From Patescibacteria group bacterium (lineage in GTDB: Bacteria > Patescibacteriota > JAQUNI01): a DNA stretch of 64,000 bases. The stretch spans positions 481,094-545,093 of the forward strand of contig JAQUNI010000001.1 in the NCBI GenBank assembly GCA_028717685.1, written 5' to 3'. Shown piece by piece: positions 1-31,320 of this stretch; within the stretch, counting starts at the first letter, position 1; each line of letters begins with the position of its first letter. The notes below the pieces were generated by a model. It was given only the letters and a program-made list of their open reading frames with translations. It was not told the DNA's origin and did not search any database. A program made the translations under genes and the position numbers.

Positions 1-142
1 TAATGACTTTATTTAAAAAAAGGTTCTTAAAAATTTTTTCATTTTAGATTTTAGTTTTTATTTTTTCATTTTCAATTTTTAATTTATTCAAGGGCTCGTA
101 GCTCAAGTCTTGCCCCACACCATTTTCTACAAATAAGAGGAA

Positions 143-216
143 GGGTATATAGCTCAGTTGGTTAGAGCGCTACGTTGACATCGTAGAGGTCTCTGGTTCA
201 AATCCAGATATACCCA
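143..216 (+). tRNA. tRNA-Val (anticodon GAC)
   Basis: Cloverleaf: acceptor gggtata/tataccc, D-arm agctcagttggttagagc, anticodon stem ctacg/cgtag with loop ttGACat, T-arm tctgg-ttcaaat-ccaga. Confidence 0.85.
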
Positions 217-269
217 CAAAAAATAGGTAATGAGGACTGGGAAAGTATTTAATTTTAATAAATAAAATG

Positions 270-338
270 GTGCGGGGTGAAGTTAGAGCGCTACGTTGAC
301 ATCACAAGAGGTCTCTGGTTCAAGTCTGCACGAGCCCA
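270..338 (+). pseudogene. degenerate partial copy of tRNA-Val(GAC) (anticodon-arm and T-arm region) preceded by 'gtgcggggtgaa' leader
   Basis: Sequence gttagagcgctacgttgacatc...ggtctctggttcaa closely matches the 3' two-thirds of the upstream tRNA but lacks a pairing acceptor/D-arm and T-stem. Confidence 0.5.
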
Positions 339-445
339 CCTACGCTAAAGCTTCGGTGGGTGAACCCACAAAAAAAGCGTAAAACTAAAAGCAAAAAAAA
401 CGTAAAATAAAAAATTTAATTTAGAATTTATTTTGGAAAGGAAAA

Positions 446-1381
446 ATGAACAAATTTATTGTTCAAGTAAAAGATAAAGAGGAACGGTTGGACAAATTTT
501 TAGTGCGCAAGTTTCCACAATATTCGCGCTCCCATTTACAAAAGAATATTAAAAGAGGACGAGTCGCTGTAAACAGAGAGAATGACAAAAAACCTGATTA
601 CAGGCTTAAAGCGGGGGATATTGTTGAAGCTGACATTAAACCTTTAGAAATGGTTAGTTTGGCTCCAGATAAAACTATCCCTTTAGATATTGTTTATGAA
701 AACGATGATCTGTTGGTAATTAATAAGCGAGCCGGAATTGTAGTGCACGCCGGGGTGGGACGAACAAAAAACAATTTAGTTAATGCTCTGATTGCTCACT
801 ATCCTAAAATTAAAAAAGTGGGCGATGCGCCCGACATTCGCCCCGGCATTGTTCACCGGTTAGATAAAGACGCTTCTGGATTGATGGTAATAGCAAAAAA
901 TAATCCCTCTTTCCAATACCTCAAAGGGTTATTTCAGAAAAGAAGAATTGAAAAGATATATCTCTCCCTAGTTTGGGGCAATTTTAAGGAAAAAAGAGGC
1001 AAAATCAATACGCCTCTGGCAAAGAATCCAAACAATCCGGCAAAAATGGTCGTGGTCCAGAACCCTAAAGATTCCTTGCAAAGACGCGCTAAAGCGGCTT
1101 TAACCGAATTTGAGGTGATAGAACAGTTTGACAATACCGCCTATATTAAAGTATATTTAAGAACAGGACGGCGGCATCAAATCCGCGTCCATTTTAAATC
1201 CATTGGTCATCCTTTAGTCAATGATCGTTTTTATGGTTATCGCAAACAGCGGTTCTTGGGTTCAGGTCGTCTTTTTCTCCACGCGAGCGAATTGACTTTT
1301 ACTTCTCCGCAGGGCAAAAAATTATCATTTACCTCTAAATTGCCTAATGATTTACAAGAAATCCTAACGCAGCAGGAATAA
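446..1381 (+). CDS. rluD: 23S rRNA pseudouridine synthase, RluA/RluD family (S4 domain + catalytic HRLDKDASG motif)
   Basis: N-terminal S4-like region (LDKFLV...RSHLQKNIKRGRVAVN), conserved HRLDxxxSG catalytic motif, 311 aa. Confidence 0.85.
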   Translation: MNKFIVQVKDKEERLDKFLVRKFPQYSRSHLQKNIKRGRVAVNRENDKKPDYRLKAGDIVEADIKPLEMVSLAPDKTIPLDIVYENDDLLVINKRAGIVVHAGVGRTKNNLVNALIAHYPKIKKVGDAPDIRPGIVHRLDKDASGLMVIAKNNPSFQYLKGLFQKRRIEKIYLSLVWGNFKEKRGKINTPLAKNPNNPAKMVVVQNPKDSLQRRAKAALTEFEVIEQFDNTAYIKVYLRTGRRHQIRVHFKSIGHPLVNDRFYGYRKQRFLGSGRLFLHASELTFTSPQGKKLSFTSKLPNDLQEILTQQE

Positions 1382-1432
1382 AGAAAGAGGAGGGAGGATA
1401 ATATTCATAAAGCCTCCCGCTATTCCTTATTC

Positions 1433-1930
1433 ATGATTCATAATTCCATGATTCCATTAATAGACGAATTCAAAAAAACTAACATACGCTCGGATGTCCC
1501 AAATTTTCGTCCCGGCTACACTATCCGCGTCCACCAAAAAATCCAGGAAAAAGGAAAGGAAAGAATTCAAATCTTTGAAGGGATGGTTATCGCGCGTAAA
1601 AAAGGAAAAAGCGCGGAAGCCACTTTTACCGTCCGCAAGATCTCTCAAGGAATCGGCGTGGAGAGAATTTTCCCTTTATATTCTCCCCATATTGCCGCAA
1701 TAGAGGTCGTAAAAACCGCAAGGCCCCGTCGGGCAAAATTATATTATCTGCGCCGCCGCGAACGCGAAAAAATGCGACGGGAAGAGAGGGTCAAGAAAAG
1801 AGAAGTGAAAATTGTCAAAACAGCGGATAAGAAAAAAGAAGTACCAGAGAAAAAGCAAGAAACCCCAAAACCCAAAGAAGAAGGAAAACATACAAAAAAA
1901 GAATCTAAACTAAAAAAATCTTCAAAATAA
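1433..1930 (+). CDS. rplS: 50S ribosomal protein L19 with Lys/Glu-rich C-terminal extension
   Basis: Strong similarity to L19 core ([13 protein letters not shown]...FEGMVIARK...FTVRKIS.G.GVERIF...AKLYYLR). Confidence 0.9.
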
Positions 1931-1943
1931 AATTGTCTTCCTA

Positions 1944-2028
1944 GCCCAGGTGGCGGAATTTGGTATACGCACAAGACTGAGGCTCTTGGCCATTTTTTGG
2001 CATCCGGGTTCAAGTCCCGGCCTGGGCA
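1944..2028 (+). tRNA. tRNA-Leu (anticodon GAG), long variable arm
   Basis: Acceptor gcccagg/cctgggc, anticodon stem caaga/tcttg loop ctGAGgc, long variable arm gccattttttggcatc, T-arm cgggttcaagtcccgg. Confidence 0.8.
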
Positions 2029-2077
2029 CAAAAAAAATGAAAAATGAAAAATTCAAAACTTAAAATGTCTTAATCTT

Positions 2078-2410
2078 ATGGCAAATTTTGATGACTTCTT
2101 AAAATTAGATATTCGGGTGGGAAAAATTATTGATGCCGAGGAACTGCCAAATCCAAAACACACTACCCATAAAATCACCATTGATTTCGGGGAGGAAATT
2201 GGCAAAAAAGTCTCTGGCGCTCGTCTCGTTCGCTACACCGAAAAACAGTTAATCGGCAAACTGGTCTTAGGCGTTGTAAATTTACCGCCCAAACAAATCG
2301 GGCAATTAGCTTCTGAAGTGCTAACATTGGGAGCTATGGATGCCCAAAAAGAATGCGTCCTCATCTCTCCTGACAGTAAAGATGCAATTATTGGCAGTAA
2401 AATTTATTAA
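2078..2410 (+). CDS. tRNA-binding domain protein (CsaA/Trbp111-like, EMAP-II-like OB fold)
   Basis: LDIRVGKII.AEELP...KLV.GVVNLPPKQIG pattern typical of CsaA/MetRS C-terminal tRNA-binding domain; 110 aa. Confidence 0.75.
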   Translation: MANFDDFLKLDIRVGKIIDAEELPNPKHTTHKITIDFGEEIGKKVSGARLVRYTEKQLIGKLVLGVVNLPPKQIGQLASEVLTLGAMDAQKECVLISPDSKDAIIGSKIY

Positions 2411-2452
2411 ACCCGCCTAAATTTTTGGGTATGTAGACCAGTCTTCTGTCGG

Positions 2453-2525
2453 GGACGCATAGCTCAGCTGGTAGAGCGCCTCGTTTACACCGAGGAGGTC
2501 ATAGGTCCGAGTCCTATTGCGTCCA
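2453..2525 (+). tRNA. tRNA-Val (anticodon TAC)
   Basis: Acceptor ggacgca/tgcgtcc, D-arm agctcagctggtagagc, anticodon stem cctcg/cgagg loop ttTACac, T-arm atagg-tccgagt-cctat. Confidence 0.85.
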
Positions 2526-2530
2526 CAAAT

Positions 2531-2600
2531 GTGCGGGGTGAAACTAAAGCGTCTTGTCTACACCGAGAATGATTGAGATTGAAATCCTACATTGCCTACA
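2531..2600 (+). pseudogene. degenerate partial copy of tRNA-Val(TAC) preceded by 'gtgcggggtgaa' leader
   Basis: gcgtcttgtctacaccgagaatgattgagattgaaatcctacattgcctaca is about 70% identical to the anticodon/T-arm/acceptor-3' part of the tRNA immediately upstream; same leader as at 270-281. Confidence 0.5.
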
Positions 2601-2675
2601 GAGTAAATTAAAAATGAAAAGTAAAAAATGTAAAATTGAATTTTTAATTTTTCATTTTGAATTTTAAATTGTTTT

Positions 2676-2749
2676 GGGCGTGTAGCTCAGTTGGTTAGAG
2701 CGTCGCTCTGATAAGGCGAAGGTCTGTGGTCCGAATCCACACACGCCCA
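2676..2749 (+). tRNA. tRNA-Ile (anticodon GAT)
   Basis: Acceptor gggcgtg/cacgccc, D-arm agctcagttggttagagc, anticodon loop ctGATaa, T-arm tgtgg-tccgaat-ccaca. Confidence 0.85.
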
Positions 2750-2815
2750 CAAAAGAAGCTAAAAGTAAAAAACTAAAAACTGCTAAGATATTTTATGGAA
2801 AATGTAGAATAAATA

Positions 2816-3130
2816 ATGGTATTTACAGAGAGTAAAAAATTTCAACGCAATAAAGAAGATTTCACGTGCGTAAAATGTGGTTCTCTGGTTCATGGCAATG
2901 GCTATACCAACCATTGTCCCCATTGTCTTTGGAGCAAGCATGTGGATTTCCAACCTGGCGACCGCCAAGAGGGATGCCAAGGCATGATGCAGCCTATAAG
3001 CGTTGAGCTTCGGAAAGGGATATTTATCCTTACCCATCGTTGTCTTAAATGCGGAAAACGGAAAACTAATCGCGCCGCTCACGAAGACAATTTAGAGCTT
3101 ATTCTGCAACTATCTCAAAACACAAACTAA
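2816..3130 (+). CDS. small zinc-ribbon protein, RNHCP-domain-like (CxxC...NHCPHC...CxxC)
   Basis: Two CxxC pairs flanking a TNHCPHC motif; 104 aa; no other recognisable domain. Confidence 0.45.
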   Translation: MVFTESKKFQRNKEDFTCVKCGSLVHGNGYTNHCPHCLWSKHVDFQPGDRQEGCQGMMQPISVELRKGIFILTHRCLKCGKRKTNRAAHEDNLELILQLSQNTN

Positions 3131-3195: not shown

Positions 3196-3251
3196 ACCCC
3201 ATTAGATAACCTCATTCTCTAAACCTATTTAGAAATTTATTTCTAACGGGG
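3196..3251. repeat. palindromic CCCCGTTAGA...TCTAACGGGG repeat family, full copy (about 56 nt)
   Basis: accccattagataacctcattctctaaacctatttagaaatttatttctaacgggg; about 85% identical to the copy at 10649-10705. Confidence 0.7.
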
Positions 3252-3311
3252 TAAATATAATTTTGGTCAAAGCAGGAAATTTATATTATAATAAAAAGGG
3301 AAAAGATAAAG

Positions 3312-4189: not shown

Positions 4190-4882
4190 ATGGACACTTT
4201 AGGGTTGTGGGGCGAAAGCATAGTGGACTCTATAAGCAAAGTCTGGGCGAGCTTCATTATTTTTACCCCTAAATTATTTGGCGCGATTCTCGTAATGGTC
4301 TTGGGCGTATTTATCGCGATCGGCATTGCTAAAATCGTCCGCCGCATTATTAACGCTTTTCGTATTACGACTATCCTGCAAAAAACCAATATTGATGAAA
4401 TAGTAGAACGAGCGGGAATAAAATTTGACGTCGGACAACTCGGATACTGGCTAGTGAAATGGTTTCTCGTGATTGCTTTCTTTATGGCGGCTGCGGAAAT
4501 TCTTAATCTGCCGCAAGTGTCGCAATTCCTGGGTAAAATCTTGTTCTATGTTCCCAACGTGATTGTGGCGGTATTGATTATGCTGATCGGCACCATTTTG
4601 GCTAATTTCCTCTACCGTCTGGTGGAAAAAAGCGCTAAGGCTGCCGATTTAACAGTTTCTGCGCGCCTGCTCGCCGAGCTTTCCCGCTGGTCTGTGCTTA
4701 TCTTCAGTTTGATGGCTGCGTTAATCCAACTCAAGATCGCCGCGGATTTAATTCGCACTCTCTTCACGGGATTGATAGCGATGCTCGCAATCGCGGGCGG
4801 GATTGCTTTTGGCTTAGGAGGCAAGGACGAGGCAAAGCGGGTTGTGGAAAAATTGAAAGGTATACGCAATAAAAAATATTAG
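4190..4882 (+). CDS. membrane protein with repeated conserved TM-helix units (MscS-associated 'TM_helix'-like)
   Basis: 230 aa; repeated pattern of hydrophobic helix followed by short charged linker, reminiscent of PF05552-type repeats; inference only. Confidence 0.4.
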   Translation: MDTLGLWGESIVDSISKVWASFIIFTPKLFGAILVMVLGVFIAIGIAKIVRRIINAFRITTILQKTNIDEIVERAGIKFDVGQLGYWLVKWFLVIAFFMAAAEILNLPQVSQFLGKILFYVPNVIVAVLIMLIGTILANFLYRLVEKSAKAADLTVSARLLAELSRWSVLIFSLMAALIQLKIAADLIRTLFTGLIAMLAIAGGIAFGLGGKDEAKRVVEKLKGIRNKKY

Positions 4883-5041: not shown

Positions 5042-5211
5042 GGAAAATAGCTAAAAATTAAATTACTTTAGTTATGTTATATTTCATTTGCTTTATACTT
5101 CAGCGAAGCGGATAAAATCGCATATCTTGTTTTGTTGCCTTGGGGGAACCGCTTCGTCATCAGAGCGGTTTTTTGATTGGTAAAATTTCAAGAGAGAAGC
5201 CGAACTTTTTA

Positions 5212-5241
5212 CCCCATTAGAGAACGAATTTCTCTAACGGG
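5212..5241. repeat. CCCCGTTAGA-family hairpin (short copy) in rRNA leader
   Basis: ccccattagagaacgaatttctctaacggg. Confidence 0.6.
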
Positions 5242-5360: not shown

Positions 5361-6420
5361 TCAAAAATGATTAGAAAACAAAGGGCGTATGGCGAATGCC
5401 TTGACTTAAAGAGACGATGAAGGACGTAGCAGGCTGCGATAAGCCTCGGGGAGCTGCCAAGCAAGCTTTGATCCGAGGATTTCCGAATGGGGAAACCCTA
5501 TGTAGAAAACCTACATAATCCGCCCAAATTTTTGGACTGTTAAAAATAAAAAGCTCCTCAAAAGGGGAGCATGTTAAAAAAATTGCTGGCAAAAGTGCTA
5601 AAAAAGGAGAGAGGTTGGAATTAATCTCTTGGGGACATAGGAGCTCCTTAGTCTATTTGGCGCGCGCCTTTAGCTCCACAATTCCAGACTTCACTTTCTC
5701 TCCTTTCGTCATGTTTCTTAGAATCTCCTACGTTCAAGAAACTATCTGTAGCTGTATTGCTACTAATAGTATATAGCAAATTCAAAAAATCATCAACAGT
5801 CTAAAAATTTGGGCGGAAGACAACCCGGGGAACTGAAACATCTTAGTACCCGGAGGAAAAGAAAAAAAATCCGCGCTTTGCGCGGAACATTCCCTGAGTA
5901 GTGGCGAGCGAAAGGGGAAGAGCCTAAACCTGTCGCCGCAACTCACTGTGTTCCCCTCACATCCGTTCGGGGTAAACTTTTCAGTTTACTCCGATGAGCG
6001 AAGCGACGAGGAGAGCCTAGCGAGTTGCGACGGCCGGGGTTATAAGACGAATACGCTATCAGGGCAACCTGGTACAGAGTTTAATAAAATGCGACTTGCC
6101 TAGCAGAAGGCGCCTGGAACGGCCCACCAAAGAAGGTAAAAGTCCTGTACGCGAAAAGCGTTGCATCTCTGACGTATCTCGTTCTTGAGTACTACACCAC
6201 CAGGGAAATGGTGTAGGAAGTCGGGAGTACTACTAAAGTCGCTCCTCACTTTTGTTCGGAGCTCCTTAAATTTAAAATGCAAAATGAAAAATGCAAAATT
6301 AAGGTAGAAAATTTTGCTTCGCAAAATTTTATTAATTTTAAATTTTGAATTTGTAATTTTAAATTGGAACGACGAGCGAAAGCGAGGAGCGATCTCCCAA
6401 GGCTAAATACTCTTTAAGAT

Positions 6421-6457
<37 letters not shown>

Positions 6458-8891
6458 CATCCCGGTGAGGGAGATGAAATAGTATCTGAAACCATACGCT
6501 TACAAAGAGTGGGAGCCACCGTGCCTCACTGCGTTCGGCACGGAATTTCTAATTTCTAATTAACCGAATTTCTAATCAATTTCTAATGCCTTAATGTCTA
6601 ATGTCCAAAAATTTTTGGTCATTGGGTTATTGGTCATTGGGATTTGATTAGAAATTAAAAATTAGAAATTAGTCATTCCGCCACGCCGAGCATAGCGAGG
6701 CGCGGTGGTGACCGCGTGCTTTTTGTAGAACGAACCAACGAGTTAGCTGTGTATTGCTCGTATAAGTCCGTTTTAAGCGGACGTATGCAAAGTGAAAGCG
6801 AGCGTTAATAGCGCGTTTTAATTCATTAGGCAAATAGAATTCTTCTGTTTGCCTTAATAATTAAAGGCAGTACGCACTAGACCCGAAGCCAGACGAGCTA
6901 GCCTTGGTCAGGGTGAACTTTGGGTAACACCAAAGGGAGGCCCGCACCCATTGGTCGTGTAAAGCCATGGGATGAACTGAGGCTAGAGGAGAAATTCCAA
7001 TCGAGTCTGGTGATAGCTGGTTCTCCCCGAAATAGCTTTAGGGCTAGCGTCCTATTTACAAATTTGGAGGTAGAGCACTGGATGGAGCAGGATGGGATTA
7101 CTCCCTACCTGTCCCAACTAAACTCCGAATTCCAAACTTTTACGATAGGGCAGTCAGAACGGCGCGGATAAGCGCGTCGCTCAAAAGGGAAACAGCCCAG
7201 ATTCTTATCTAAGGTCCCTAAGTTCAAGTTAAGTGGTAAAGGAAGTGAGATTACAGAGACAATTAGGAGGTTGGCTTAGAAGCAGCCATCCTTTAAAGAA
7301 AGCGTAACAGCTCACTAATCGATCGTGATCTTGCGCCGAAAATGTAACGGGGCTCAAACTTGACACCGAAGATAGAAACCGTTGCTCCGCAACGGAAGCT
7401 CCAATAATCAAGAATCAAATTCCAAACAAGAACCAATAACCGAAATTCAAATAACCAAACAATCTGGTTTTGAACTTTGGAAATTGGGATTTAAGATTTG
7501 TTTGGAAATTGGGATTTAAGATTTGGAATTTCCGCCGCGGAGCGGCGGTGGTAGGGGAGCATTCTATATCCAGTAAAGCCAGCCTGTAAGGACTGGTGGA
7601 GGATATAGAAGAGAGAATGTTGGTATGAGTAACCTAAAGTCCGGTGCGAAACCGGACCACCGTAAGTCTAAGGTTTCCTGGGCAACGTTAATCAACCCAG
7701 GGTTAGTCGATCCTAAGTCGCAAAAAACGACGATGGAAGAGTAGGTTAATATTCCTACACTACTATTAATTTTGACGGAGGGACGCCACAGGATAGATTT
7801 CGTGTCCTAATGGTTTAGGCATTGCTGATCCGTAGCCGGAAGAAACAGGCAAATCCGTTTCTTCAATTCCAAACGGCGAAGATTATCAAAAGGTTTATTC
7901 CGCAAGGAATAGGTCAATGAAATTGATTCCAGTGGCCAAGAAAAACTCCTAAAATTAGATTAATAGTACTCGTACCGTAAACCAACACAGGTAGACGGGT
8001 AGAGGATACCAAGGTGTTCGGGTGATCCTTAGCTAAGGAATTCGGCAAAACAACTAGGTGTAAGTTCGCAAGATACCTTGCCTCAAAACATTTCGCTTGC
8101 GCTTCGTGTTTCTTAAGAAATCCCAAAAATCAAGCGCCAAGCATCAAACAAATTACAAACAGAAAAATTCCAAGCTTAAAAGGGTTTGGAATTTAGGAAA
8201 TCGAAATTTAAGATTTGTTTGTCTGGCTTCGCCAGATCTCGCGAGAAGCGAGAAAAATTATGATTTGGGATTTTGAGCACGGAGCGCTAGCGGAGTGCGT
8301 ATGGGGTCGCAGTTAAAGATCCAGGACGACTGTTTACCAAAAACACAGGTCCCTGCAAAGCCAATAAGGCAAAGTATAGGGGCTGACGCTTGGCCAGTGT
8401 CGGAACGTTAAGAGCGGGGGTGAAAGCTCTCGCTTTAAGCGCCGATGAACGCCGGCCGTAACTATAACGGTCCTATGGTAGCGAAATCCCTCGTCACTTG
8501 ATTAGTGACCTGCACGAACAGCGGAACGATCCTGGAACTGTCTTAGCTAAGTGCCCGGTGAAATTGCATTTGCCGGTAAAGATGCCGGCTAGCTGTATCA
8601 AGACGAAAAGACCCCGTGGAGCTTTACTATAGCTTGGTATTGATTTGAGGTTTTGGATGCCGAGAATAGGTGGGAGACTTTGAGCGTCAGCTTTCGGGCT
8701 GACGGGAGTCGCAATATGGAATACCACCCTTTCGGAGTCTTAAATCTAACCCCTTACCTAGCAAGGATTTTTGTGGTAAATTAAGAAATTTTAATCGGAT
8801 TTATATTGTGCCTTAATTACTTAAAAATTCTTAATACTTTAGCGAGCCTAAAGGCTCGTATCTTTGCTAGGTGAGGGGGAAAGTGCCTGGT

Positions 8892-9156: not shown

Positions 9157-9546
9157 CAACAACATCGGGGTGCCATGGCAGTAATGCCATAACAAAAATC
9201 TGACTTATAACGGTGAAGCCCTAATTCTTTTAATATCTTTTGTGGCATAAGTGATATAATAAGTAAAAGAGATAAATATAAAAGAATGGGTAATACCGTG
9301 GGAAGTTTAACTCAATTTCAAGGCCAAAGTTAAGAAAGATTCTGAATGAAAATATCATTCCATCTATGAAATATAAAATTGAGTTATAACCCCGTAGAGA
9401 CTTGTCCCTAAGGAGGGACGGATAGAAGTGGTGAATCAAATAAATTAAATTACGGCTTCTATAATATGTCAGCCCCCTCACTTTTTAAAGGGGAGGGGTG
9501 AAGATATAGTCCGATCCTCTTAGTAATAAGAGAAAATGCCGACAAG
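9157..9546 (+). other. putative ORF-less group I intron in 23S (between GGCACCU and CGAUGUCGGCUC, peptidyl-transferase region, around E. coli position 2500)
   Basis: 390 nt insertion splitting the invariant GGCACCUCGAUGUCGGCUC block; upstream exon ends in U, insertion ends in G; no ORF. Confidence 0.6.
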
Positions 9547-9639
9547 CGATGTCGGCTCGTCGCATCCTGGAGGTGAAGAAGCTTCCAAGGGTTTGACTGT
9601 TCGCCAATTAAAGCGGTACGCGAGCTGGGTTCAAACCGT

Positions 9640-10122
9640 CAACCAAAACCTATTTACTGTTAGATAGGTTTGGCGGCTTCTAGTGGCAACACTAGAATGA
9701 AAAACTGACTCATATCGGTGAAATCCTAGTTGACAATTAACCTGTCGCATACTAGGATAATACCGAGGGAAGTCACGGCCGTACCTCACTATCGTTCGGT
9801 ACGGGCAAATTTTTAATTTTTAATTTTTAATTTTTAATCAATTTTCAATGATTTAATGCTTAAATTTTTAAACTCAATAGAATAGAGAGTTTAAAAATTG
9901 AGTCATTACAAAATTGGAATTTGTTTGAAAATTAGAAATTGAAAATTAGAAATTCCGCCTGAACGCAAGTGAAGTGCGGCTGGTGACCCCGTAGAGACTC
10001 AAGGATAAGAACAATCCTTGGATTTAATCTTTAAAAAAGATTAGATAATACGTCAGTGCTCCAAAAAATTATTTTGGAGTGTGGTATAGTCCATGCCTTG
10101 TGGCAACACGAGGAGAAACATG
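9640..10122 (+). other. putative ORF-less group I intron in 23S at the classical I-CreI-type site (AACGU^CGUGAGACAG, around E. coli 2593)
   Basis: 483 nt insertion splitting GGGTTCAAACCGT | CGTGAGACAGGTTGG; exon ends in U, intron ends in G; no LAGLIDADG/GIY-YIG ORF. Confidence 0.6.
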
Positions 10123-10648
10123 CGTGAGACAGGTTGGTCTCCTATCTGATACAGCCGCATAAAGTCTTGAGGGAGCCCATTTCCAGTACGAGAGGACCGA
10201 AATGGATAGACCTCTGGTGTACCAGTTATCTTACCAAAGGTAAACGCTGGGTAGCTACGTCTAGTTAGGATAAATGCTGAAAGCATATAAGCGTGAAGCC
10301 GTTCCCAAGATTAGGACTTTCCGCCGCAAGGCGGAGGATTTGGTCGGAGAAGACGACCTTGATAGGCTCTAGGTGTAAGTCCTGCAAGGGATTTAGCCGA
10401 GGAGTACTAATAGATCTATTTCAATCATCTTTTGACCCCGTTAGATAAATTTATTTTCAAAAAGCGCATAGACTAAACAAAGTTATAACCCAAAAATTGA
10501 ATTTGAGTTTTAACCTTTTTAGTCTTGCGTTGCACTAGTGTCTTCACAACAAAAATCGGCTTTTAAATTGGCAAGCGTGGTGGTGATGATTGCTGTCTTT
10601 ATTACGATCGTCTTTTTACTGACCCCTCCGGCGATCGGGATGAGGTAA

Positions 10649-10705
10649 ACCCCGTTAGAGAACCTCCTTCTCTAACTCCGTTTAGAAATTTATTTCCAGC
10701 AGGGG
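10649..10705. repeat. CCCCGTTAGA-family full copy in 23S-5S spacer
   Basis: accccgttagagaacctccttctctaactccgtttagaaatttatttccagcagggg. Confidence 0.7.
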
Positions 10706-10949
10706 CTAACGGTCTGCACTGACGATGATATTAAACCACCGCCAACTTTAAGCGGTAATGACCACCGATTAAAATCGGTAACTTTCTCTAACGGGGTAAA
10801 AAACCCCAAAAATCCTGAAAGAATTTTTGGGTGACCCCTGAAGAAAAGCCCCACAAAATTATAGATTTTATGGGGGACCCCTGAAAAACCCCAATCAATC
10901 CCTATAATCAACGGAGATCTGTGAGCTAGAATGAATTAACTAATAGCTC

Positions 10950-12087: not shown

Positions 12088-12381
12088 CCTCCTTAAAGCT
12101 CATGGAAAGAACATGCTTTAATAACTTTTTACATCTATGCGCCACATATCTCAAAAATAAACTATCCCAGTTAATATGTCAAACCTATTAGCCCCTCACC
12201 TAGAAAAGATAGAAATCGTGTAGGTGAAGGGTTTGACTTTACGACTTTAAAAAATTATGATGAGAGAGGAAGGGTCGCATAGTGGTCTAGTGCGGCGCAC
12301 TCGCCCCGAGATAAACTCGGGGCGCCACGGGTTTATCCCGTGGCGAAAAATTTATATGTTTATTATATAATATAATTCAAT

Positions 12382-12469: not shown

Positions 12470-12476
12470 CTTCGGT

Positions 12477-12511
12477 CCGCCGAAGTCCGCCTCAGGCGGA
12501 CGAAGGCGACC
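12477..12511 (+). repeat. structured GC-rich repeat, copy 2, just 3' of tRNA-Ser
   Basis: ccgccgaagtccgcctcaggcggacgaaggcgacc; nested inverted repeats. Confidence 0.5.
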
Positions 12512-12565
12512 TTCGCCCGCCCTTAAGAAGCATTTATAAAAACTTAAAAATTAACAACAAGTATT

Positions 12566-24236: not shown

Positions 24237-24632
24237 ATGTTCAAATTCAAATTATTCTCCACTATAATCCTTGCCCTACTCGGAATATCTTTAGTCTTAA
24301 ACCTAGCCCACGCGGCTTTAGTGCCTTGCGGCGGCACGGGTCAACCGGAGTGCAATCTTTGCCATTTTTTTGTCTTAATCCAAACTATCTTTAAATATCT
24401 GCTGGGATTTCTGGGAATCGTGGCGCTGCTCATCTTTGTCATCATCGGCTTTATGTTTTTATTCGGTTCCACCAATGAAGGTCTGCTCACTACCGGCAAA
24501 AAGGCTCTGACCTCCGCGATAATCGGTCTTGTCCTGGTGCTCGTCGCTTGGCTTATAATCAACACTGTGGGCTACGCCATAGGTTGGGCGCAAAAAGGCA
24601 GCTGGTGGACATTTAATTGCGTATCAGAATAA
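24237..24632 (+). CDS. VirB2/TrbC-like two-TM pilin-family protein (member 1 of array)
   Basis: Signal peptide, 4-Cys loop (PCGGTGQPEC.LC), two hydrophobic helices separated by FGSTNEGLLTTGKKAL loop. Confidence 0.45.
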   Translation: MFKFKLFSTIILALLGISLVLNLAHAALVPCGGTGQPECNLCHFFVLIQTIFKYLLGFLGIVALLIFVIIGFMFLFGSTNEGLLTTGKKALTSAIIGLVLVLVAWLIINTVGYAIGWAQKGSWWTFNCVSE

Positions 24633-24633
24633 A

Positions 24634-24664
24634 CCCTATTAGAAAACTTTGCTTCTAACGGGGT
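24634..24664. repeat. CCCCGTTAGA-family short hairpin after pilin gene 1
   Basis: ccctattagaaaactttgcttctaacggggt. Confidence 0.6.
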
Positions 24665-24687
24665 AAAAACATTTTTATAATTTCAAA

Positions 24688-31158: not shown

Positions 31159-31320
31159 CACTTTTACGGTGTAATAGTTAAAAGTTCAAGGTGCAAAATT
31201 CAAAGTTGCAGTTTAAAGTTCAAAATTGAAAAACTTACAACTTTGAATTCAACTTTTCACTTTGAACTTTGAACTATTAACTAAGTTGCAGATCCTTCCC
31301 CCGGCACAAAAACACCTCCG

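Follow-up and report, generated by a model that had tools for sequence, protein, structure and literature searches.

Two valine transfer RNA (tRNA) genes, tRNA-Val(GAC) (locus 1) and tRNA-Val(TAC) (locus 2), stand near the start of a 64,000-nucleotide (nt) stretch of DNA from a Patescibacteria group bacterium (contig JAQUNI010000001.1, positions 481,094 to 545,093), hereafter the window, and each is followed by a tRNA-like fragment with the same 12-nt leader, GTGCGGGGTGAA. Where do these fragments come from? The initial annotation took them for degenerate partial copies of the tRNA gene next to them. The fragments and the shared leader were present as described, but the fragments derive from older resident genes and not from the neighbor. 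At both loci a short cassette bounded by inverted repeats and carrying a replacement tRNA with the same anticodon was very probably inserted into an older resident tRNA-Val gene, which it replaced.

The window belongs to a metagenome-assembled genome and consists of AT-rich bacterial DNA with bacterial-type 23S and 5S ribosomal RNA (rRNA) genes and six tRNA genes. The tRNA genes were called by ARAGORN and Rfam, and the fragments were also searched with Rfam at E ≤ 10. Judged by the pseudouridine synthase, the closest named relative is a Candidatus Doudnabacteria genome (82% identity). Relatives were compared at syntenic sites, among them a Doudnabacteria contig (L001), four assemblies from different samples (L004-7) and an independent assembly (L062, Logan SRR22315508). 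A contig scan of genomes with RluD returned the L001 contig again and distant bacteria, nothing else.

Split tRNA-Val genes at two loci of the window

At locus 1, no tRNA was called between 217 and 400 by ARAGORN or Rfam, even at E ≤ 10. The fragment equals the adjacent tRNA from GGTTAGAGCG to GGTTCAA except for the change of cgtag to cacaag, and then continues with another T-stem 3' strand and another acceptor strand, so that the 3' ends of fragment and adjacent tRNA differ (gtctgcacgagccca vs atccagatataccca). Its acceptor strand at 331-337 is complementary to a gggctcg upstream of the tRNA; this pairing had been noticed before, but the motif lies at 92-98, not at 91-97. An intact tRNA-Val(GAC) of this type, GGGCTCG...CGAGCCCA, occupies the same site in L001, L011, and L004-7 and is followed by the same downstream hairpin, which bears out the suggestion that the complete gene is bracketed by the halves of a disrupted tRNA. 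The intact L001 gene (5821-5895) precedes the synthase gene and reads GGGCTCGTAGCTCAGTTGGTTAGAGCGCTACGTTGACATCGTAGAGGTCTGCAGTTCAAGTCTGCACGAGCCCA (GGGCTCGTAGCTCAGTTGGTTAGAGCG...CTGCACGAGCCCA), and the 3' part of a resident-type tRNA-Val(GAC) is also intact in L059. When the two outer pieces of the window (92-107 and 282-338) are joined, they are 87% identical to the L001 tRNA and differ from it in three places only, namely, the loss of 2 nt from the D-loop, the change of cgtag to cacaag, and that of tgcag to tctgg. The sequence at 339-445 is 94% identical to the one after the intact L001 tRNA. The insert spans 108-281 (174 nt), and the resident gene is split in the D-loop. The window carries the insert at this site, L001 and L011 have the site empty, and since L001 keeps the empty site, the insertion at locus 1 is the younger one.

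At locus 2, 2526-2675 likewise gave no tRNA call by either program, even at E ≤ 10. The intact gene, GGGCAATTAGCTCAGTGGTAGAGCGTCTCGTTTACACCGAGAAGGTCGTAGGTCCAAATCCTACATTGCCCA (GGGCAATTAGCTCAG...AAATCCTACATTGCCCA), follows directly after the same tRNA-binding-protein gene in L004-6 and L011. The joined outer pieces (2427-2441 and 2543-2600) are 73% identical to the intact L004/L011 tRNA-Val(TAC) and about 60% identical to the adjacent tRNA, of which the fragment had earlier been described as an approximately 70% copy; the 3' ends differ here as well (cctacattgcctaca vs cctattgcgtcca). The insert covers 2442-2542 (101 nt) and again splits the D-loop, with no upstream spacer beyond an arm remnant and a downstream spacer of 5 nt, in agreement with the distance at which the leader had been reported (2531). 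The same insert is found at the same place in L001, where its arms TTACCCCCACACC/GGTGTGGGGGTAA form a perfect 13-bp pair. Because the outer pieces match intact syntenic orthologs at both loci, the fragments are the halves of older resident genes and not partial duplicates of the working tRNAs.

The outer tRNA-Val genes of the window are dead. At locus 1, the anticodon-stem 3' strand and the T-stem 5' strand no longer find their partners, and the joined pieces yielded only a spurious Cys(aca) call by ARAGORN at a relaxed threshold; the initial view that this fragment cannot fold into a cloverleaf was correct, since pairing is lost in the anticodon stem and the T stem alike. Locus 2 retains hardly any stem, and ARAGORN returned no tRNA from its joined pieces. 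The Rfam search at E ≤ 10 over 1-3000 gave neither a tRNA call for the fragments or the leader nor any other credible family. Compared with L001, the inner tRNA of locus 2 is 99% identical, the flanking spacers 94-96%, and most aligned blocks of the region about 84-92%, whereas the outer pieces reach 64% with indels. This divergence, far above that of the flanks, indicates a pseudogene that has been decaying since before the lineages of the window and L001 split.

Two observations concern the surroundings of these genes. The hairpin CCACCTACGCTAAAGCTTCGGTGG at 338-361, which trails the resident tRNA-Val(GAC), occurs in L001 at 5894-5925 and also after tRNA-Ile (8738-8765); it is a repeated tRNA trailer module. 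In L001, a tRNA 5' half, TTAGCTTGAGTTGGTAGAGCATTTGCTTTA, followed by TTCACCC lies at 8037-8110 between two direct repeats CACCCGCCT and resembles the outer tRNA and left arm of L003 (Table 1); it may be what is left of one more insertion layer, located upstream of locus 2.

Table 1. Features of the two split tRNA-Val loci of the window, genes beside them, and nested or split tRNA genes in related loci
Site	Feature	Position	Strand	Basis or remark
Locus 1	5' piece of resident tRNA-Val(GAC): acceptor GGGCTCG, TA, D-stem GCTC, AAG	92-107	+	Equals nt 1-14 of the intact L001, L011, and L004 gene; pairs with 331-337
Locus 1	Left inverted-repeat arm TCTTGCCCCACACCATTTT	108-126	+	Inverted-repeat search and fold; homologous L001 arm TCTTACCCCCACACC
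Locus 1	Spacer between left arm and inner tRNA, 16 nt	127-142	+	Sequence; without similarity found elsewhere
Locus 1	Inner, functional-looking tRNA-Val(GAC), GGGTATA type (cargo)	143-216	+	ARAGORN; Rfam, 74.4 bits
Locus 1	Spacer between inner tRNA and right arm, 47 nt	217-263	+	Sequence
Locus 1	Right inverted-repeat arm AAAATGGTGCGGGGTGAA; contains the 12-nt leader (270-281)	264-281	+	Inverted-repeat search and fold
Locus 1	3' piece of resident tRNA-Val(GAC), D-loop to discriminator base, chimeric	282-338	+	Alignment to inner and L001 tRNAs
Locus 1	Native downstream hairpin region of resident tRNA, CCTACGCTAAAGCTTCGGTGGGTGAACCCAC	339-369	+	Same region after the intact L001 tRNA
Locus 2	5' piece of resident tRNA-Val(TAC), gggtatgtagaccag, GGGCAAT type, decayed	2427-2441	+	Alignment to the intact L004 and L011 gene
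Locus 2	Left-arm remnant tcttctgtcgg	2442-2452	+	About 11 nt deleted relative to L001 tcttacccccacacctttcgg; no repeat partner found for the leader
Locus 2	Inner tRNA-Val(TAC), GGACGCA type (cargo)	2453-2525	+	ARAGORN; Rfam, 70.2 bits; 99% identical to the L001 inner tRNA
Locus 2	Right arm (leader), now partnerless	2531-2542	+	Orthologous L001 arm GGTGTGGGGGTAA has a perfect partner
Locus 2	3' piece of resident tRNA-Val(TAC); anticodon arm tcttg/tctacac/cgaga recognizable; 3' end aaatcctacattgcctaca	2543-2600	+	Alignment
Window	RluA-family pseudouridine synthase	446-1381		Beside the tRNA-Val loci
Window	Ribosomal protein L19	1433-1930		Beside the tRNA-Val loci
Window	Small tRNA-binding-domain protein	2078-2410		Beside the tRNA-Val loci
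L003/L063	Val-TAC, GCGCGCT type, inside Val of the GGGACGCA type	2215-2400 (L003)		Split after nt 35; arms CCCCGTTAGAT/ATCTAACGGGG
L004-7	Ile-GAT inside Ile-GAT			Split exactly at 35|36; 17-nt arms
L004, L005, L007	Lys-CTT inside Lys-CTT			Split in D-stem; arms GCCCGCCAGTGCC/GGCTTTGGCAGGC
L006	5' half of Val, ending after nt 35, before Val-GAC	2085-2141		Left arm only, TTCGCCCTGTTAAAT
L061	Val-GAC, GGGTATA type (the window cargo type), inside a different Val, GGGCGCA type	60-330		Split in anticodon arm; arms CACTTTT/AAAAGTG

Inverted-repeat arms of the inserts

The leader occupies the outermost 12 nt of the cassette's right repeat arm. It has exactly two copies in the 64 kb, 270-281 and 2531-2542, both on the plus strand. 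With up to two mismatches, eight matches were obtained in the window against 2.65 expected, and the other six are not near any tRNA; a dispersed genomic motif was therefore rejected. As to conservation of the leader elsewhere, the exact sequence was absent from the first seven related loci fetched, but the homologous arm GGTGTGGGGGTAA is present at locus 2 of L001.

At locus 1, the arms 113-126 and 264-277 (14 nt) are 93% complementary, and G-U pairs extend them to 108-126 and 264-282, where TCTTGCCCCACACCATTTT is the inverted complement of AAAATGGTGCGGGGTGAAG. In the minimum-energy fold of 88-342, outer piece pairs with outer piece and arm with arm (z = -2.6 against shuffled sequences), and the predicted arm pairing extends to 109-116 with 274-282. 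The inserts share terminal inverted repeats, small size, and lack of an open reading frame (ORF; none of at least 40 aa in either) with miniature inverted-repeat transposable elements and repetitive extragenic palindromic (REP) sequences. Both arm copies of the 64 kb lie in tRNA-Val genes, and no target-site duplication was seen (the tRNA-Ile insertion of L004 is exact at 35|36, and locus 1 lost 2 nt).

Arms vary between genomes yet are common to different loci of one genome: two loci of the window have TCTT.CCCC.../...GGGGTGAA, and two inserts of L004 start with CCCGCCCGC. Stand-alone hairpins of the window-type motif, CTTACCCCCCACACC...GGTGTGGGGGCTTA, occur in L004 at 4420-4455. The arm motif of L003 was found in the window in the 23S leader/trailer stem (5350-5378/10418-10446), which carries ATCTAAYGGGGTCAA/TTGACCCCGTTAGAT, and in REP-like hairpins at 3196-3255, 5208-5240, 10646-10800, and 24632-24668; the same motif forms the arms of the nested tRNA-Val in L003 and L063. 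The arms thus belong to palindrome families common in these genomes, and they may be either ends recognized by an enzyme or hairpins whose loops receive inserted DNA.

Other roles of the arms were considered. A promoter and terminator scan of 1-2800 gave nothing informative on them, and an arm as a -35 box was rejected as it was without a consistent -10 element. Integron attC sites, the target tetranucleotide of IS200/IS605 insertion sequences, and Xer/dif were rejected since no consistent core or target was apparent across the junctions. Scans of viral contigs with the junction motif and both cargo tRNAs gave no matches, and the 15-mer TTCACCCCGTTAGAT gave 29 matches in viral contigs, none near a tRNA and not above chance, so that a phage origin of the cargos is without support. 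Two groups of viral contigs (L070, L073, L081, L067, and L069) contain hairpins CACCCCGTTAGAT...ATCTAACGGGGT at sites away from any tRNA. In a metagenome contig of 52% GC that is unrelated to the window (L048 654-687), the hairpin GGTGTGGGGGtgaatcaagtcttGCCCCCACACC matches the arm and junction motifs, probably by chance.

Nested tRNA genes in related genomes

The arrangement recurs in relatives in six further cases, with tRNA-Val, tRNA-Ile, and tRNA-Lys (Table 1), and the insertion points are in the D-loop, the D-stem, or the anticodon loop or arm. The stretches 4646-4878 and 7850-8098 of L004 hold its nested tRNA-Lys and tRNA-Ile genes. Aligned with the L001 gene, the halves of the outer tRNA-Ile in L004-7 correspond to nt 1-36 (95% identity) and nt 37-75 (100%). 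No such fragments were found in the more distant relatives L008, L010, L011, and L060, nor in the other tRNA-bearing loci of the RluD scan (two Zambryskibacteria, one Saccharibacteria, and one Metamycoplasma).

Host and cargo have the same anticodon in all five pairs in which both are readable. With about 40 tRNA species this is far from chance and points either to a selective loss of all insertions that are not compensated or to a mechanism that depends on homology.

The tRNA-Val(GAC) genes at one syntenic site of close relatives (80-91% RluD identity) have the acceptor types GGGCTCG, GGACGCG, GGGTATA, and GGGCGCA. The outer tRNA of L003 has the acceptor type of the locus-2 cargo of the window; the locus-2 site seems to have been overwritten twice, with the remains of the first layer cleaned away in L003. 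Upstream of rluD in the window, L001, L002/L003, L008, L010, and L061, tRNA-Val(GAC) copies with GGGCTCG, GGACGCG, GGGTATA, GGACGAT, GGGCGGT, and GGGCACT acceptors were observed, and CCA is encoded in some and not in others. Such different acceptor stems at a single syntenic site indicate repeated gene replacement, not gradual change.

Further insertions accompany some of these genes. In L061, a GC-rich hairpin has in addition been inserted into the T-loop of the dead outer tRNA. In L001 (8359-8680) and L003 (2505-2810), an ORF of 86 aa with a GIY-YIG domain (PF01541, E = 7e-16), bounded by a 20-bp inverted repeat, has on one side 11 nt duplicated from the tRNA-Ile 5' end and on the other the complete tRNA-Ile. 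In each genome, the 11-nt duplicate agrees with the tRNA-Ile type of that genome, and the site is empty at position 2676 of the window and in L063.

Proposed course of gene replacement

The structure and history of the nested genes are well supported by the split, the intact orthologs, the inverted repeat, the decay of the outer genes, the recurrence, and the shared anticodon; the mode of spread we infer. A resident gene (GAC, GGGCTCG type at locus 1; TAC, GGGCAAT type at locus 2) was cut in its D-loop by an insert composed of left arm, spacer, complete tRNA-Val, spacer, and right arm. The inner tRNA would then take over the function, presumably transcribed from the resident promoter and released by RNase P and 3'-end processing, and the outer halves and arms, probably without present function, are decaying. 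Such an insert would be tolerated, and could not be lost, because it destroys an essential gene yet brings the substitute. Its spread at the DNA level might have proceeded by recombination, by homing-like conversion between alleles or paralogs, or by an enzyme acting in trans.

Traces of conversion are present at locus 1. The closest relative of the cargo elsewhere is the tRNA-Val(GAC) of L061; the two are 91% identical and agree in acceptor and T arm, but the anticodon arm of the cargo is of the resident type whereas the L061 tRNA has a different one. In the 3' piece, 282-322 is like the inner tRNA and 323-338 like the resident, and the three substitutions that break the outer T stem (tgcag to tctgg) bring that stretch into full agreement with the inner tRNA. 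A chimeric 3' piece of this kind would result from gene conversion between nested copies or from homing-like co-conversion of the flanks.

A broader proposal is tentative and, in our estimate, somewhat less likely true than false: these could be self-compensating mobile tRNA cassettes, selfish elements of the candidate phyla radiation (CPR) that insert in the loops of a tRNA gene of the same anticodon, destroy that gene, supply their own tRNA, and are overwritten in later rounds. If so, the cassettes become indispensable and drive the rapid turnover of acceptor types between close relatives. Their driver could be homing or conflict with tRNA-targeting nucleases.

Several points weigh against replacement by mobile cassettes. 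No transposase, integrase, or endonuclease gene was found in or next to the inserts, so that their mobility is presumed. The leader is identical at both window loci in all 12 positions, even though locus 2 otherwise decays neutrally and the cargos differ. The same cargo tRNA type has different arms in the window and in L061, and together with the variation of arms between genomes this means that arms and cargo are not one fixed element. The outer tRNA-Ile and tRNA-Lys of L004 are valid tRNAs for ARAGORN once the insert is exactly removed, so that removal from the RNA could apply to those cases in L004-7. The related loci examined number only about 15, and the scan of metagenome contigs with the left-junction motif returned only the L001 contig and about 13 chance matches, with no further copies.

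Alternative explanations

The best surviving alternative, which we nevertheless regard as improbable, is local duplication and rearrangement, in which deletion and conversion would have left, of several tandem tRNA-Val copies, one intact gene between a 5' and a 3' stump. The identical D-arm and anticodon arm of the inner and outer genes at locus 1, with their conversion patch, would fit this, and tRNA loci are rearrangement breakpoints in these genomes (L006 vs L004). However, the two stumps together make up a single tRNA broken at one common point, in the tRNA-Ile of L004 to the very nucleotide (1-36 | 37-75), and their acceptor strands fit one another but not the inner copy. The inverted repeat around the insert has no relation to tRNA sequence, filled and empty alleles differ by exactly the insert (window vs L001 at locus 1), the inner tRNA type of locus 1 is present in the distant relative L061, and the pattern recurs at no fewer than seven loci. 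These features favor insertion of a cassette over rearrangement of tandem copies.

Less likely still is an intron-like or split tRNA, with the insert removed from the RNA, the outer halves joined or held by the repeat stem, and both tRNAs functional. In the predicted fold the arms do bring the outer halves together, the insertions in L004-7 are exact and leave joined outer tRNA-Ile and tRNA-Lys pieces that are valid tRNAs, the L003 arm motif also forms the 23S leader/trailer stem of the window, and tRNA introns are known at 35/36 in Patescibacteria (PMC13011429). Against this, the outer genes of the window cannot form a cloverleaf, the left arm of locus 2 is largely deleted, and divergence in the outer pieces of that locus far outpaces that of the flanks. 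The predicted junction is a continuous helix with single-nucleotide bulges or mismatches and not two 3-nt bulges around a 4-bp helix. A group I intron was rejected, as no Intron_gpI match was found in 1-3000 at E ≤ 10, the inserts of 101-174 nt, including a tRNA of 74 or 73 nt, are too short for the ribozyme (Intron_gpI criterion, about 200 nt), and position 35 is A whereas the group I 5' splice site needs U. The shared anticodon of host and cargo is predicted by compensation and not by splicing. For the window, replacement by the inner tRNA is therefore preferred to splicing; the recent insertions in the tRNA-Ile and tRNA-Lys of L004 may be removed at the RNA level and would then be a new bacterial type of tRNA intron that carries a tRNA.

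The attL/attR scar of a tRNA-targeting integrative element, proposed in the initial annotation with the fragments as 3' duplicates from integration or excision, or as decoys, is very improbable. Integration into tRNA genes is classic, and the fragments are located 3' of intact tRNAs whose central sequence they share. An integrase scar, though, repeats the functional tRNA's 3' end in direct orientation, is located at the far end of the island, and has no 5' fragment, whereas here matching 5' fragments lie upstream (92-107 and 2427-2441) and the acceptor strands of the fragments agree with the intact tRNAs of relatives and not with the adjacent tRNAs. The inserts of only 101-174 nt hold a whole tRNA and no integrase gene, and their boundaries are inverted and not direct repeats. 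The comparison with relatives, suggested in the initial annotation as a check for an island between tRNA and fragment, showed none at these sites.

A chimera of metagenome assembly at repeated tRNA sequence is hardly credible: the source is metagenome-assembled and the L062 contig ends inside the inner-tRNA regions, where assemblers thus break, but L062 reproduces 230-2501 at 100% identity, including the junctions at 230-338 and 2427-2501, locus 2 is common to L001 with divergence, the nested tRNA-Ile is present in four assemblies from different samples, and the arms and spacers are unique sequence and not tRNA repeats.

Other inserts and palindromes in the window

The 23S rRNA gene of the window is interrupted as well. 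The Rfam match stops at 9237, yet the sarcin-ricin loop AGTACGAGAGGACCG lies at 10185-10199; the gene therefore runs to about 10420, and 9237-10100 is inserted sequence. Within it, 9397-9533 gave a group-I-like signal of 39.6 bits, below threshold in the same type of Rfam search as used for the tRNA inserts, and a large palindrome occupies 9808-9954. Another palindrome lies at 6567-6656, and inverted-repeat pairs with 29-253 nt between the arms were found at 5519-5817, 6239-6392, and 7378-7549.

At 12266-12344, a 42-nt double-hairpin element (GCCCCGAGATAAACTCGGGGC GCCACGGGTTTATCCCGTGGC) comes after a tRNA-like 5' fragment (12266-12302). The element occurs reverse-complemented in the T-loop of a tRNA-Arg 3' fragment in L004 (3931-4001) and looks like a small mobile palindromic element landing in tRNA sequence. 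GC-rich palindromes follow directly after tRNA-Ser (12470-12530), and long AT-rich palindromes are located between tRNA genes (2605-2629 with 2640-2664) and after tRNA-Leu (31172-31279).

Comparison with known systems

Integrative elements that target tRNA genes are kilobases long, and their integrases use attB sites in the anticodon loop, the T-loop, or the 3' end. They resemble the cassettes in inserting in a tRNA gene, leaving tRNA fragments, and compensating the damage. In contrast, they restore the displaced 3' part by a direct repeat and carry an integrase, whereas here a whole new tRNA is supplied, both old halves are kept, and the repeats are inverted.

Disrupted tRNA genes of archaea include bulge-helix-bulge introns at noncanonical positions, the split tRNAs of Nanoarchaeum, and those of Caldiarchaeum, for which a model of disruption by mobile elements was proposed (PMC3293823, PMC4390854). 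They share with the present genes the separated halves, adjoining complementary sequences, sites in the D-loop and anticodon loop, and a proposed role of mobile elements. They differ in that our case concerns a bacterium, no bulge-helix-bulge is predicted, the outer halves in the window are pseudogenes, and a complete tRNA with the same anticodon lies between them. In tRNA genes of Patescibacteria, group I introns have been described at position 35/36 (Nakagawa et al. 2026, PMC13011429); the phylum is the same, and the unusual 35/36 site is used by nested inserts of L003, L004, and L006. Unlike these introns, the inserts have no ribozyme core and carry a tRNA, position 35 is A and not U, and in the window the D-loop is the site of insertion.

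Small palindromic elements comprise REP sequences and bacterial interspersed mosaic elements, Rickettsia palindromic elements, mitochondrial GC clusters, and double-hairpin elements (e.g., PMC4478555, PMC2800124). Like these and the 23S intervening sequences excised by RNase III, the inserts are short, ORF-less, equipped with inverted repeats or hairpins, and located in structured RNA genes and intergenic DNA. To our knowledge, palindromic elements do not carry a gene that replaces the interrupted one. Replacement driven by homing endonucleases without an intron is exemplified by SegB of phage T4 and its tRNA gene region (PMC13096335). Common to both are the preferential inheritance of a tRNA region, a conversion tract like the chimera of locus 1, and presence or absence between close relatives; unlike in intronless homing, the cassettes are without an endonuclease gene, and the GIY-YIG ORF is found only at the tRNA-Ile of L001 and L003 and not in the window.

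None of these closest systems unites an inverted-repeat boundary, a complete tRNA cargo of the same anticodon, and a destroyed host tRNA, and literature searches gave no bacterial report of one tRNA gene nested in another. The tRNA genes of bacteria are usually seen as stable targets that mobile elements restore, whereas the tRNA genes described here appear serially overwritten, and at least one locus seems to record two successive replacements. Annotators of genomes from this group should consider nested replacement wherever they meet tRNA fragments or "missing" or extra tRNAs. Cassettes of this kind, if mobile, would represent a route by which a selfish element becomes essential through replacing an essential RNA gene and not through adding a toxin. 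The arrangement also provides a bacterial counterpart to the models for the origin of split and intron-bearing tRNAs in archaea.

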